From: a bacterium
GTDB taxonomy: Bacteria > Patescibacteriota > Microgenomatia > Daviesbacterales > UBA10151
Direction: 5' to 3'
DNA: 60,576 nt
Assembly: GCA_021786105.1 (NCBI GenBank)
Contig: JAJYNW010000016.1
Span: 1 to 60,576, forward strand
Below are positions 14,678 to 18,887 of the stretch, piece by piece (the first letter of the stretch is position 1; each line of letters starts with the position of its first letter). The translations under genes were made by a program, and so were the position numbers. Under the pieces are notes generated by a model. That model did no database searches and was not told where the DNA came from. It saw only the letters and a program-made list of their open reading frames with translations.

Positions 14678-15934
14678 TTATAATGTCAGTTTTTGGATAG
14701 CTTCGTCAAGTGAAATGGTTTGCTGAGATTTATTTTTTAAGTCTTTCAAAGTAACTTTGTTTTCTTGGACTTCGTTTGGACCAATGATGACAACAAATGG
14801 AATACCTTTTTGGTTGGCGTATTTTAATTGCTTATCTAATTTTGACTGAGGATCCAGCCATAGTTCAGTGTTGATGTTATTGGAACGTAAACAAGAAGCA
14901 ACTTCTGCAGATTTCTGTTCCAGATCTTTGGAAAAAATAGTTACTAAAACTTGACTGGTGGTTAAATCAGCCGGAAAAAGACCTAATTGATCCATGACTT
15001 CTATCAGCCGGTCAAAGCCAAAGGCAAAACCAACAGCCGGAACAGTTTGTTTGGAAAATAAGCCAATTAAATTATCATACCTGCCTCCGCCGCCCACCGA
15101 GCCGGCAGTGTATCCTTCAATCTCAACTTCAAATATCAAGCCCGTGTAATAATCCAAGCCGCGGGCCAGTGTGGGAGAGAATTCATATTTTTCTTTTGAT
15201 ATGCCCAGTTCTTCTTCCAGAGCTTTGAATATGTCTTTCAAGTTTTGTGTTGGTTTACTGTCTTCTAAAGTACATAGAATTGATGTAGCCGAACTTTCAT
15301 CGCCTGAAGTAATTTTTTCTGTTAATTCATCAATGACTTCCTCATACCCAATTTTATTCAATTTATCAACTATGCGAATAATAGAGAAAAGATTGTAATC
15401 TTTGAAAATTGCATTATTGACCAAATCTGAAAAGATAGTTCTATCATTTATTATGGCTTTAAAGTTTTTAAAGCCTAAAGTTTCAAGGCTTTTAATAGTG
15501 CACGCAATTACTTCTGCATCAGACAGGGGAGAGTTTAAACCAACAGTATCGATATCACACTGCAGAAATTCCCTAAACCGGCCTCTTTGGGGGTTTTCCG
15601 CCCGCCAGACGGGTTGGATTTGGTATCTTTTGAAAGGAATAGGCAACTGATTTTGGTACTGGGCCACCACACGGGCTAAAGGCACGGTCTGGTCATACCT
15701 TAAAGCTACTCTGCGGCCCCCCTGATCAGTAAAACGGTACATTAATTTATCACCCTCATCCCCATATTTGCCCAGGAGTATTTCCTCATACTCCAAAGCT
15801 GGAGTCTCCAAAGGTTCAAATCCAAAGGATTCAAACACCTGTTTGAGCAAATTTTGCACATACTGTCTCTTCCCCGATTCTCGGGGCAAAAAATCCCTAA
15901 AACCTTTCAATGTCTGTGCCGTTATGTTACCCAT
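14678..15934 (-). CDS. hisS: Histidine--tRNA ligase
   Basis: KGFRDF, LRYDQTVPLAR, GRFREFLQCD, RGLDYYTG, GGGGRYD. Confidence 0.98.
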   Translation of the reverse strand: MGNITAQTLKGFRDFLPRESGKRQYVQNLLKQVFESFGFEPLETPALEYEEILLGKYGDEGDKLMYRFTDQGGRRVALRYDQTVPLARVVAQYQNQLPIPFKRYQIQPVWRAENPQRGRFREFLQCDIDTVGLNSPLSDAEVIACTIKSLETLGFKNFKAIINDRTIFSDLVNNAIFKDYNLFSIIRIVDKLNKIGYEEVIDELTEKITSGDESSATSILCTLEDSKPTQNLKDIFKALEEELGISKEKYEFSPTLARGLDYYTGLIFEVEIEGYTAGSVGGGGRYDNLIGLFSKQTVPAVGFAFGFDRLIEVMDQLGLFPADLTTSQVLVTIFSKDLEQKSAEVASCLRSNNINTELWLDPQSKLDKQLKYANQKGIPFVVIIGPNEVQENKVTLKDLKNKSQQTISLDEAIQKLTL

Positions 15935-16853
15935 ATATTTTCTCCATTAGATCTATGATAGCACGATCGTTTCTATTTGGAATTATTTGTTTAGGTGATA
16001 ATTCCAAAATATCCTTTGCTCCGGCTTCTTGTAACTCAGAAATTATCATTCTAAAATTACGACGAGGTATCAAGGAACTTATAGCCCACCACCCGCTTTC
16101 GTTTAATGGGGACATCGTTGGTGATTCTCCGCTGGGCAGTAAATCTGTTATTGTTTGTCTGGCAGATTCTGGTGCGTTCATAACAATATAGGTAAAGTTT
16201 CTAACTCTCAAAGCTGATTCGATACCCATTAAGAATTCTTTGACAAAGCGTTCGCTGCCTCTTTTTTCCCGAAGCTTTGGGCTGGCCACTAACATGGCTT
16301 CTGATTCAAGTAACACATCATAGGCTGTAATTCCGTTTGCCCTCATTGAATCACCGCTTGAGCTAATATCAACACAAGCTTGAGCTTCTCCTGATTTAAC
16401 ATATTTTTCTATTGAACCAGATCTTACTAACAAATCTACGTTTGTATTGCTTTTCGCAAAAAAATCACGGCTCAAATTTGGGTAAGAAGTGGCAACAGTT
16501 AAACCGTTTAAGTCTGAAGGTTTTTCGTAAGGTACGTCTTTTTTAACCCCCAGTTGTAGCCGGCACTTACCAAATCCTAAGGGCATTAATGGAATTACTG
16601 CTGACTCTGCTTCAGCTAAAGAGTTTTGCCCGACAATTCCAAAGTCAGCATAACCTCTTTCGACATCATTTGGGATATCTCCAATGCGGACCAGCTCAAT
16701 GCTTAAAGGAAAATCTTCTACCTCGCAAATATCGACCCTGCCTCCTATCTGAAAGCTAAAATTTGCCGCAGAAAGCAAGGCCGTTGAGTCTTGACCCATT
16801 CTGCCATCGGTTTTCTGTATTGCTATTTTTAATTTTGTTTCAAATTCACTCAT
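15927..16853 (-). CDS. hisG: ATP phosphoribosyltransferase, long form with regulatory C-terminal domain
   Basis: IAIQKTDGRM, DIPNDV...ADFGIVGQN, LGFGKCRL, VATSYP, PTMSPL. Confidence 0.92.
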   Translation of the reverse strand: MSEFETKLKIAIQKTDGRMGQDSTALLSAANFSFQIGGRVDICEVEDFPLSIELVRIGDIPNDVERGYADFGIVGQNSLAEAESAVIPLMPLGFGKCRLQLGVKKDVPYEKPSDLNGLTVATSYPNLSRDFFAKSNTNVDLLVRSGSIEKYVKSGEAQACVDISSSGDSMRANGITAYDVLLESEAMLVASPKLREKRGSERFVKEFLMGIESALRVRNFTYIVMNAPESARQTITDLLPSGESPTMSPLNESGWWAISSLIPRRNFRMIISELQEAGAKDILELSPKQIIPNRNDRAIIDLMEKIYG

Positions 16854-16884
16854 AATTTCTCACCTTCTTTCTTTTAAAATTCAC

Positions 16885-17199
16885 TCACTTGGTTTTTTCT
16901 GCGTGCCTCCTGGTTAATTCCTCCAAAACTTCTTCTAGAGTAATATTTGAGGCAACTAGACTTACTAGAGAGTGAAACCACAGATCAGCTGTTTCTCCGA
17001 TTACTGCGTCTCTTCCTTGACCAGTAAGGCTGAATCTGCTGACTGCTAGGGCAACTTCCACTCCTTCTTCTCCCACTTTTTGGGCAATACGAGATGGGCC
17101 TTTTCTAAAAAGGGAAGCTACATAAGATCCCTCCGGCATTTCTTCCTGCCGTTTCTTAACTATTCCGTATAAACCTTCAAGTGTTATTCTTTCTGTCAT
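16885..17199 (-). CDS. hisE: Phosphoribosyl-ATP pyrophosphohydrolase
   Basis: GSYVASLF, IAQKVGEEGVEV, ETADLWFH; ATG at 17199 follows GAAAGGAGGTGA. Confidence 0.93.
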   Translation of the reverse strand: MTERITLEGLYGIVKKRQEEMPEGSYVASLFRKGPSRIAQKVGEEGVEVALAVSRFSLTGQGRDAVIGETADLWFHSLVSLVASNITLEEVLEELTRRHAEKTK

Positions 17200-17227: not shown

Positions 17228-17289
17228 AAAAAAACCTTCCGTTCACTGCCCACTACCCAAAAATAGGGTAATGAACAAGGAACGGAAGG
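17228..17289 (-). terminator. Intrinsic terminator of the T-box leader
   Basis: 10-bp stem CCUUCCGUUC/GAACGGAAGG followed by U7. Confidence 0.88.
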
Positions 17290-17460
17290 CATTAAAAAAG
17301 GACCTCCCGCGGTCCCATCCTGTTTTCTGCAATCTATTGCTAAACTACAGCTCTTAGTGGCGACTCCGCTAGGCGACATCGTCTGTTTCATTTTACGGTT
17401 AAACTTCCGTAGAGTATTTGGCTCTCAGCTTTTGGATCGTGACTCCAATGCAAACGCTTT
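17228..17460 (-). promoter_or_regulatory. T-box riboswitch leader, probably tRNA-His specific
   Basis: Minus strand AGGA-UGGGACC-GCGGGAGGU pairs with GCCUUCCGU-UCCU (antiterminator); mutually exclusive terminator follows. Confidence 0.85.
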
Positions 17461-17501
17461 TTATCCCGATTTAATCGGGATAAATATTCAATTGTGTAAT
17501 T

Positions 17502-17529
17502 AGTATACCACAAAACCTTTCCTTGTCAA
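17502..17529 (-). promoter_or_regulatory. sigma70-type promoter of the his leader
   Basis: TTGACA-N16-TATACT with TGn extension. Confidence 0.75.
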
Positions 17530-17682: not shown

Positions 17683-17784
17683 TATAATCGCTTGCGATTA
17701 CATCGCGACGCTTCTTGTAACGCGTTGCGTTATAATCGCTTGCGATTACATCGCGACGCTTCTTGTAACGCGTTGCGTTATAAT
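17683..17784. repeat. Perfect 2 x 48-bp tandem duplication upstream of manC
   Basis: tataatcgcttgcgattacatcgcgacgcttcttgtaacgcgttgcgt at 17683 and 17731, plus a third tataat at 17779. Confidence 0.92.
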
Positions 17785-17804: not shown

Positions 17805-18887
17805 ATGAAAATTGTCATCTTTGCTGGCGGAGTTGGAACCAGGTTGTGGCCGCTATCACGTAAGAATACCCCTAAGCAATTTGAAAAGGTAATTGACGAT
17901 AAATCGATGCTGCAGATTTCCATTTCCAAAGTGTTTCCGGATTTTGACTGGAGTGACATTTATATTTCGACCAATAAGCAATATGAGCAAATACTTAAAA
18001 GTCAGTTCCCGGAAATCCCCGAGTCAAATCTGATTTTTGAGCCAGCCATGCGCGATGTAGGTCCGGCAGTGGGCTTGGTTATTGCTAACTTTATGAAGAA
18101 AAATCCGGATGAGCAAATAGCCATACTTTGGGGGGATCACCTGATTAAAAAAGACGATGAATTCAGAAAAGCTTTGAAAATTGCGGAGAAACTCAGCCAG
18201 GACGATCCGGAGAAGATTATTTTTGTGGGACAAAAACCCCGGTTTGCCAGTGTGAATTTGGGTTATATTGAATTTGGCAGCGAGGTTAAAAAGGAAGGGG
18301 AAACTCCGGTTTATGAATTTAAAGGTTTTAAATACCGGCCCGATGAGAATTTAGCCCGAAGTTTTTTAGCAGACGGTCAGCATGCTTGGAACTTAGGTTA
18401 TTTTGTGACCACCCCCAAATTTTTGTGGAAGTCTTATGAAAAGTTTGCCCCCGGTCTTTTTGAGAAATTAAGGTTAATTTCGGATGCAGTAGGGACGGCG
18501 GGCTACGAAAAATTTGTCGATGAAGTTTACCCGGCCATGGAAAAAATTTCTTTTGACAATGCCATTTTGGAAAAGCTGGATCCGGCAAACGGCTTGGTAT
18601 TATCAGTAGATATTGGCTGGAGCGATATTGGGGCTTGGGAGGCATTAAAAGAGGCTTTGGCCAAATCCGAAGATGAAAATGTGATTAAAGGTAATGTAGA
18701 GCTGTTGGATTCAACGGATAATTTGGTATTTAACTATAACGGCCAGCTAATTGTGGGGATTGATTTAAAAGGGATGCTCGTCATCAATACCGGAGACGTT
18801 TTGCTGGTTTGTCCAAAGACTTCAGTCCCCAAAATTAAAAAATACGTGGAGAGTTTAGCCGGTACCCCTAACGAGAAGTTGGCTTAG
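17805..18887 (+). CDS. manC: Mannose-1-phosphate guanylyltransferase-type nucleotidyltransferase
   Basis: AGGVGTRLWPLSRKNTPKQF, SFDNAILEK, WSDIGAW. Confidence 0.9.
   Translation: MKIVIFAGGVGTRLWPLSRKNTPKQFEKVIDDKSMLQISISKVFPDFDWSDIYISTNKQYEQILKSQFPEIPESNLIFEPAMRDVGPAVGLVIANFMKKNPDEQIAILWGDHLIKKDDEFRKALKIAEKLSQDDPEKIIFVGQKPRFASVNLGYIEFGSEVKKEGETPVYEFKGFKYRPDENLARSFLADGQHAWNLGYFVTTPKFLWKSYEKFAPGLFEKLRLISDAVGTAGYEKFVDEVYPAMEKISFDNAILEKLDPANGLVLSVDIGWSDIGAWEALKEALAKSEDENVIKGNVELLDSTDNLVFNYNGQLIVGIDLKGMLVINTGDVLLVCPKTSVPKIKKYVESLAGTPNEKLA

Follow-up and report, generated by a model that had tools for sequence, protein, structure and literature searches.

The window analysed here, a 60,576-nt stretch of DNA from a bacterium of the Candidate Phyla Radiation (CPR; contig JAJYNW010000016.1 of assembly GCA_021786105.1), carries a leader on its minus strand, at 17529-17228, between a divergent manC-like gene (17805-18887, plus strand) and hisE. 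This leader is very probably a working T-box riboswitch, specific for histidine and acting at the level of transcription. In the mechanism proposed, RNA polymerase would start near 17495, and the decoding module of the nascent RNA would fold into an ultrashort Stem I presenting the His codon CAC in its apical loop, a miniature Stem II and a IIA/B pseudoknot. The module would catch tRNA-His through CAC-GUG pairing, without contact to the tRNA elbow. The C73-C-C-A end of uncharged tRNA would pair with the UGGG of a bulge in the antiterminator, whereas with charged tRNA the hairpin of the main terminator T2 (24 pairs followed by U7) would form and transcription would halt at about 17228. The binding of tRNA, the discrimination between its charged and uncharged forms and the roles of Stem II, of an extra linker hairpin (hp4) and of a terminator-like hairpin inside the antiterminator (T1) are presumed from sequence comparison.

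Homologous leaders and family assignment

In a local scan with the Rfam T-box model RF00230, the leader was aligned along the full model length with 28.7 bits (E = 2e-4; gathering score 93), while its homologues scored 34-42 bits. This shortfall is due to the deletion of 62-76 Stem I positions together with insertions, and with a score under the gathering score the leader escapes routine annotation. Folding of the leader compared with that of shuffled sequences gave z = -7.1, and its core AGGAUGGGACCGCG at 17321-17308 agrees at 13 of 14 positions with the T-box consensus AGGGUGGNACCGCG quoted in PMC11297988. A preliminary description, made from the sequence of the window, had suggested running Infernal with T-box models and aligning homologous leaders for covariation. 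The former returned the RF00230 hit and, in the homologues, aligned a hairpin with the loop GUCACGA to Stem I; the latter showed 14 of 28 pairs of the decoding module to have changed on both sides.

Relatives were sought through homologues of HisG, HisE and HisS and the contigs that carry them, as well as by one metagenome pattern scan. Most of the HisG-based contigs (L002-L005) end before the leader, and a search of genome contigs with HisG as the query returned only a distant Bacteroidota locus. The pattern scan yielded at least three true family members, from 119 loci among the matches listed. The set comprises 13 distinct leaders, that of the window and 12 others, which are referred to by locus number.

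Further leaders: L002, L004, L006, L007, L008 (= L009, L010), L030, L062, L088, L131 (= L132), L133 (near-identical to L135), L134 and L136

A covariance model of the decoding module (R1), built from nine leaders, gave all members 99-124 bits and recognised exactly one site in the window. The leader L136 belongs to a metagenome-assembled genome at NCBI, in which HisRS is named Candidatus Daviesbacteria, and its gene neighbourhood is that of the window: DnaB, a metallo-beta-lactamase-fold protein (Pfam Lactamase_B_3), the ManC-like gene, the leader, hisS, EamA, L31 and RF-1. HisRS relatives bearing the name Ca. Daviesbacteria and the occurrence of such a leader in this Daviesbacteria genome speak for a CPR origin of the window. 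The genes behind the leaders are hisS, hisG, hisE, hisI or tRNA-His, apart from L133 (834-1388), where the leader is followed by a LOG-family gene (Pfam LDcluster4) and then by hisE-hisI-hisS. The HisG proteins of the leader-bearing relatives are only 44-72% identical. Two members, L002 (48-206) and L006 (10-175), have kept the full decoding module (Stem I with CAC, Stem II, pseudoknot and hp4). Neither has a UGGN bulge, a Stem III or a T2, and all that stands between the module and the gene is a short T1-like hairpin followed by a U-run.

The locus was found in DNA runs, and no match was obtained in RNA runs of the organism. Two aquatic runs labelled RNA-Seq (X14 and X15) contained 32-47 contigs at least 80% like the leader (17293-17461), with a depth of up to ~240; these contigs are assembler output, and where they end is set by breaks of the graph at conserved words and not by the 3' ends of RNAs. 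On one of them Stem I reads CCGAA-GUCACGA-UUCGG. Another has a different, longer hairpin at the place of Stem I, CAUGAACC-GAAUUUAUUCU-GGUUCAUG, and may be a sibling leader of other specificity.

The decoding module

The following elements were assigned to the decoding half of the leader and the adjoining linker:

17428-17457, minus strand: ultrashort Stem I of 30 nt, in which a GC/GC base and a degenerate K-turn-like GA motif are followed by a 5-bp helix capped with an apical loop of 7 nt
17439-17441, minus strand: specifier, the His codon CAC, which matches the anticodon GUG; its 5' neighbour is U and its 3' neighbour the purine G
17410-17426, minus strand: putative miniature Stem II, with a helix of five pairs and an A-rich loop that is conserved
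17385-17409, minus strand: Stem IIA (CGG/CCG), F-box CCGUAA and IIB pseudoknot (GUUU 17404-17401 with AAAC 17388-17385)
17359-17383, minus strand: additional hairpin (hp4) in the linker, with UGU/GAG as its internal loop

The helix of Stem I is formed by UUGGA (17448-17444) and UCCAA (17436-17432), which enclose the loop GUCACGA (17443-17437). The preliminary description had pointed out this hairpin with CAC in its loop, and it was indeed found at 17448-17432 with CAC at 17441-17439; the hairpin does not, however, form the very 5' end of the RNA, since another hairpin of 25 nt (17484-17460) comes first. The loop, which resembles an anticodon loop, is invariant in all 13 leaders, with CAC at loop positions 3-5, and the helix occurs as UUGGA/UCCAA, GUGAA/UUCAC, GGGAA/UUCCC, CCAGA/UCUGG, UAGGA/UCCUA, CUGGA/UCCAG, UCGGA/UCCGA and GUGGA/UCCAC. 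Compensatory changes are seen at four of the five pairs, with 100% of the cells in the leader alignment paired. Across the decoding module as a whole, in which half of the pairs have changed on both sides, 91.7% of the cells are paired, a result matched by 0 of 500 shuffles, and shifting the partners by 1-3 columns lowers the pairing to 27-42%. In the homologues, Infernal places the GUCACGA hairpin on Stem I of RF00230 with the middle 62-76 consensus positions deleted, and an independent RNAalifold run on eight leaders gave the same Stem I, Stem II, IIA, hp4 and Stem III.

A promoter lies 25-30 nt upstream of Stem I in nine leaders, and three others begin immediately behind the stop codon of hisG, so that a long Stem I could not be accommodated. 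A search for a canonical Stem I with a different specifier gave none; no other hairpin of the leader is able to hold a specifier bulge, and across the leaders there is no conserved His codon other than the CAC of the GUCACGA loop. The specifier obeys both the 'C rule' and the 3'-purine rule of T-box specifiers (PMC7583486). The sequence comparison supports an ultrashort Stem I with the specifier in its apical loop and with no elbow-binding platform. The preliminary description, in which a canonical long Stem I could not be folded and an apical-loop specifier on an ultrashort Stem I was suggested, had pointed the same way, and its reading is now strengthened by the position of the promoters, the invariance of the loop and the covariation of the stem.

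Other placements of Stem I and of the specifier were rejected. Infernal laid Stem I of the window over the promoter (17544-17480), whereas in the homologues it aligns the GUCACGA hairpin; the 17484-17460 hairpin was discarded as a Stem I because it is not conserved; and the CAC triplets in the 5' tail and in the flank of hp4 were dismissed as specifiers, since neither is conserved. At the base of Stem I, the K-turn consensus is a canonical GA...GA in L004, L008, L030 and L088, and partly in L062, and takes the form AA...AA in L131; RNAalifold gives a regular GUUU/RAGC helix for this region instead.

The hairpin at 17426-17410 would act as Stem II, judging by its position directly after Stem I. 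Its loop is CAAAAU in most leaders and CAAAU in the window, where the loop-closing pair is a C-A mismatch, and three of its five pairs show compensatory changes. The IIA stem that follows is invariant across the leaders. The IIB pseudoknot was judged by positional covariation, as a per-sequence shuffle test is without power for 4-bp AU-rich helices; it occurs as GUUU/AAAC, GUUG/CAAC, AUUG/CAAU and GUUC/GAAC in leaders with 8-nt loops and as UCUA/UAGA, CUUA/UAAG and GAUU/AAUC in those with 11-nt loops. Nothing in the Rfam consensus corresponds to the linker hairpin hp4, which was scored as an insertion. Its outer stem shows compensatory changes and its U-G/G-A/U-G internal loop is invariant, while its tip is variable, with insertions of 30-50 nt in L007, L062 and L133.

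The discriminator and the terminator

The downstream half of the leader consists of the following elements:

17322-17355, minus strand: RAG box AAGAG (17355-17351), Stem III (17350-17327) and 3' AA flank (AAAAC), forming an RRRxG-Stem III-AA motif
17278-17321, minus strand: antiterminator with helix A1, a 7-nt bulge, the 8-bp helix A2, whose basal pair is G-U, and a loop of 13 nt
17228-17290, minus strand: main intrinsic terminator T2, with 24 pairs (hairpin 17290-17235) and U7 (17234-17228)

The RRRxG-Stem III-AA motif and a G-U pair at the base of A2 are regarded as hallmarks of a functional discriminator (PMC7583486), and both were found in every discriminator-bearing leader. Stem III covaries, and the pair formed by G17310 and U17282 is G-U in nine of nine aligned leaders. 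The antiterminator with the bulge UGGGACC, noticed in the preliminary description, is present at 17321-17278: A1 is formed by AGGA (17321-17318) and UCCU (17281-17278), the bulge occupies 17317-17311 with its UGGG adjoining A1, and A2 is formed by GCGGGAGG (17310-17303) paired with CCUUCCGU (17289-17282). Across A1 and A2 99% of the cells are paired, with one-sided changes only.

Computed energies in the window are -12.5 kcal/mol for the antiterminator and -38.7 kcal/mol for T2. T2 has 10 compensatory pairs, with 96.6% of the cells paired, and shares 17289-17278 with the 3' strands of A2 and A1. These strands make up its 5' arm, so that terminator and antiterminator are mutually exclusive, as had been proposed from the sequence of the window for its U7 terminator. 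No conserved helix involves the ribosome-binding site (RBS) at 17215-17206, which is situated beyond T2, 13 nt downstream of the U7 tail. Since the RBS is free, control would be exerted through termination and not by sequestering of the Shine-Dalgarno sequence, and translational control was rejected on the same ground. Covariation of T2, its U-run and the position of the RBS support control by transcription termination, and the coupling to termination suggested in the preliminary description is upheld.

The match to tRNA-His

In three relatives T2 is followed directly by a gene for tRNA-His: L007 (1822-1895), L088 (3735-3809) and L134 (about 1306-1385). All three genes have the anticodon GUG, an encoded G-1 and C73. 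The gene in L088 gives a perfect cloverleaf with CCA encoded, and those in L007 and L134 have one or two acceptor-stem mismatches. Checked on these genes, the CAC/GUG and UGGG/C73-CCA pairings both fit, and the discriminator base C73, deduced earlier from the UGGG of the bulge, is the one that they encode. Specificity for histidine, as first proposed in the preliminary description, is supported along three independent lines, by CAC as the only invariant His codon, by this match of UGGG to C73-CCA and by the regulated genes, which are hisS, hisG, hisE, hisI and tRNA-His.

In these three relatives the tRNA-His gene lies 17-53 nt past the T-box terminator, before hisE or hisG. The riboswitch may therein control the gene of its own ligand.

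The T1 hairpin and alternative explanations

The antiterminator of the window contains a second, terminator-like hairpin:

17294-17316, minus strand: T1, in which GGGACC of the bulge is paired with GGUCCU (the end of the A2 5' strand and the loop), followed by U6

T1 has a computed energy of about -10 kcal/mol and was flagged by a terminator scan. The same hairpin is found in L136, L131, L008, L088, L030 and L062, and L004 has a register-shifted version (GACCGC/GCGGUU followed by U7). In all, T1 is kept in 8 of the 11 discriminator-bearing leaders, in two registers, and is absent in L007, L133 and L134, all of which are operon-internal. In the T1-like hairpins of L002 and L006, one pair has changed on both sides, from A-U to C-G. 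We infer that T1 is an early checkpoint under selection: it could terminate transcription, make the polymerase pause or act as a kinetic trap, in competition with the tRNA 3' end for the bulge.

A variant of the proposed mechanism, quite possible although somewhat improbable, would accordingly have two checkpoints: T1 would make the first and main decision and T2 would check again, or T1 would only pause the polymerase. The 5' arm of T1 is the tRNA-binding bulge, so uncharged CCCA would have to hold UGGG before T1 folds. In the pausing version, T1 would give a slow-binding module without elbow contact more time, which is of relevance as transcriptional switches have been argued to need fast tRNA association (PMC7583486) and such speed is unlikely for this module. 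The stability of T1 with its U6 and its retention in two registers speak for such a variant. So does the finding that in L002 and L006 a T1-like hairpin with a U-run is the sole terminator remaining, with its A-U to C-G change, as well as the insertions in L062 and L136, which pair with the U-run yet leave it in place. On the other hand, T1 is missing from L007, L133 and L134, which otherwise look intact. Moreover, the A1 3' strand is still untranscribed when T1 emerges, so the discriminator fold cannot yet hold the tRNA end, and the conservation of T1 is largely by descent and thus reflects few independent events.

Two further explanations depart from tRNA sensing through the apical CAC. That the leader is a decayed or constitutive attenuator, i.e. 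a T-box descendant that does not respond to tRNA and sets a fixed level of termination, is considered very improbable. Erosion does occur in the lineage, as is evident from L002 and L006, where neither the UGGN bulge nor Stem III nor T2 has survived, and the degenerate K-turn and the low Rfam score of the window would suit such decay; however, the window is intact for CAC, UGGG beside A1, the G-U at the A2 base, the RAG box and a mutually exclusive T2, and the invariance of the loop and of the T-box core, together with covarying helices in relatives whose HisG proteins have diverged so far, points to purifying selection on the switch. Slightly less credible still is a specifier other than the apical CAC, with tRNA or another ligand read elsewhere and the GUCACGA loop serving as a tertiary contact. 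Because the loop is invariant, there is no covariation with tRNA to test within the family, and in most leaders UCGU of the A2 3' strand is a possible partner for ACGA of the loop. This pairing is lost in the window, where the sequence is CCGU; no other conserved His codon exists in the leader; a bulge-type specifier loop is absent, with no room for one; and the position of the codon fits the short Stem I loops as described in PMC7583486 and PMC3896937 (citing Sherwood 2015 and Vitreschak 2008).

Several observations weigh against a functional, transcriptional His T-box and have to be set beside the evidence for it. The Rfam score is far under the gathering score (28.7 versus 93). The K-turn is degenerate in the window (GCA/AA) and canonical in about 5 of the 13 leaders. 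No S-turn is seen in Stem II, though it is essential in known T-boxes with a short Stem I; either the hairpin at the Stem II position or the UGU/GAG loop of hp4 could supply the purines. The antiterminator shows no double compensatory change, being too conserved for that. Transcriptional T-boxes are said to need an elbow-binding platform (PMC7583486). Finally, the presence in L002 and L006 of a decoding module without a discriminator may indicate a role of this module outside the proposed model.

Comparison with known T-boxes

With the class I transcriptional T-boxes of Firmicutes (RF00230, including His-specific leaders of hisS and his operons), the CPR leader has in common the core and the 7-nt bulge with UGGN beside A1, the G-U at the A2 base, the RAG-Stem III-AA arrangement, the IIA/B pseudoknot with its F-box, an antiterminator that excludes the terminator, an NNC specifier followed by a purine, and the control of aminoacyl-tRNA synthetase or biosynthesis genes. 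In contrast to these T-boxes, it lacks the long Stem I, the S-turn specifier bulge and the distal interdigitated T-loop elbow platform (IDTM), and has a 5-bp Stem II with an A-rich loop, the extra linker hairpin and T1 within the antiterminator.

Actinobacterial translational T-boxes carry the specifier on a short Stem I, in its apical loop, according to PMC7583486, PMC3896937 (citing Vitreschak 2008) and the TBDB methods (10.1101/2020.06.17.157016); the examples summarised in PMC7583486 and PMC11297988 are ileS of Mycobacterium and Nocardia farcinica (Sherwood 2015). Compared by description only, these ileS leaders share with the CPR leader a decoding module of Stem I, Stem II and the IIA/B pseudoknot as well as the discriminator core; the apical-loop specifier on a short Stem I and the lack of elbow contact are likewise common to both, and a K-turn-like base of Stem I, degenerate in the window, may be so too. 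They differ in that the ileS leaders sequester the Shine-Dalgarno sequence, whereas the CPR leader has a terminator of 24 pairs with U7 and leaves its RBS free; they have a long Stem II with an essential S-turn, which is not visible in the CPR leader; and they respond to Ile in Actinobacteria, as opposed to His in CPR. The proposed T-box-like leader of Corynebacterium glutamicum hisD (Jung 2010, in PMC3896937) is likewise a short His-related leader with a CAC/CAU codon and UGGN. It has no Stems II and III, its T-box sequence, with UGGA, is poorly conserved, and PMC3896937 calls into question whether it is a T-box, while the CPR leader has all discriminator hallmarks and UGGG.

In reviews, transcriptional T-boxes are characterised by a long Stem I, and its contact with the elbow is described as indispensable if the tRNA is to be captured quickly; ultrashort Stem I elements are placed in translational, actinobacterial T-boxes (PMC7583486; TBDB, PMC7778990). 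A conserved natural family with a Stem I of ~30 nt and a strong intrinsic terminator is a direct counter-example to this division; the preliminary description had noted that the combination would be unusual. In the predicted architecture, which is a new combination, the expression platform of class I is joined to a short Stem I with an apical-loop specifier, a miniature Stem II in which no S-turn is visible, an additional hairpin in the linker and an embedded T1. With about 230 nt, it offers a compact system for asking what minimal RNA is needed to read tRNA during transcription, and T1 inside the antiterminator may be a novel device by which a riboswitch times its decision or checks it twice.

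No published description of the leader was found, nor did full-text searches yield any paper that connects T-boxes or riboswitches with Candidate Phyla Radiation, Patescibacteria or Microgenomates; the preliminary description had already called T-boxes unexpected in CPR. The present comparison suggests that tRNA-sensing riboswitches exist in CPR bacteria, and as standard models miss CPR T-boxes, the regulatory RNA content of CPR genomes is underestimated. A broader proposal, unlikely as a whole, is that CPR bacteria (Microgenomates) possess an architectural T-box class of their own. Such a class would take a co-transcriptional terminator decision without an elbow platform or a recognisable Stem II S-turn, for which hp4 (with UGU/GAG) and the embedded T1 would compensate, and would check the uncharged 3' end twice, at T1 and then at T2; some lineages would drive their own tRNA-His gene with it, and others would keep the decoding half and T1.

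Promoter, operon and flanking sequences

The remaining features of the locus are as follows:

17502-17529, minus strand: sigma-70-type promoter, with TTGACA at 17529-17524, a 16-nt spacer and an extended -10 element TGgTATACT (-10 at 17507-17502)
17460-17484, minus strand: window-specific perfect 11-bp hairpin UUUAUCCCGAU-UAA-AUCGGGAUAAA, 25 nt, in the 5' tail of the leader
14678-17199, minus strand: regulated operon (Pfam assignments), with hisE 16885-17199, long-form hisG 15927-16853 and hisS 14678-15934

The promoter lies where the preliminary description had put it and, with 11 of 12 matches and the TG of an extended -10, is the top promoter-like site within the first 20 kb of the window. 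Transcription would start near 17495. Equivalent promoters are present at the same distance in L004, L008, L002, L030, L062, L088, L131 and L136. The palindromic hairpin at 17484-17460 is absent from all 12 homologous leaders and occurs once in the window; it is located outside the conserved switch and may be a small mobile hairpin insertion. The 5' tail also holds a motif, (U)ACAAnUnAAUA, which is conserved directly after the predicted start in promoter-bearing leaders (window 17487-17497, minus strand), with an A-rich run between it and Stem I; no pairing partner for this motif was found.

The genes downstream had been read as hisE-hisG-hisS, and Pfam identifies their products as PRA-PH (HisE), long-form HisG and a complete HisRS of 418 aa. 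The most likely start of hisE is the ATG at 17199, with the RBS AAAGGAGG at 17215-17206. Beside hisS, the operon of the window has only the first two enzymes of the histidine pathway (long-form HisG and HisE), to which relatives add hisI.

The divergent promoter region at 17683-17784 (both strands) contains a perfect tandem duplication of 48 bp (2.1 copies, 100% identity, unit TATAATCGCTTGCGATTACATCGCGACGCTTCTTGTAACGCGTTGCGT). Each unit contains two short palindromes, and there is an overlap between the array and a promoter-like site of the manC-like gene on the plus strand. In some relatives HisRS is reduced to ~304 aa and has no anticodon-binding domain (L008 6738-8241; L005 1359-2860; L131 4941-5855), and an NYN-domain gene precedes the short HisRS in L008, L009 and L005.

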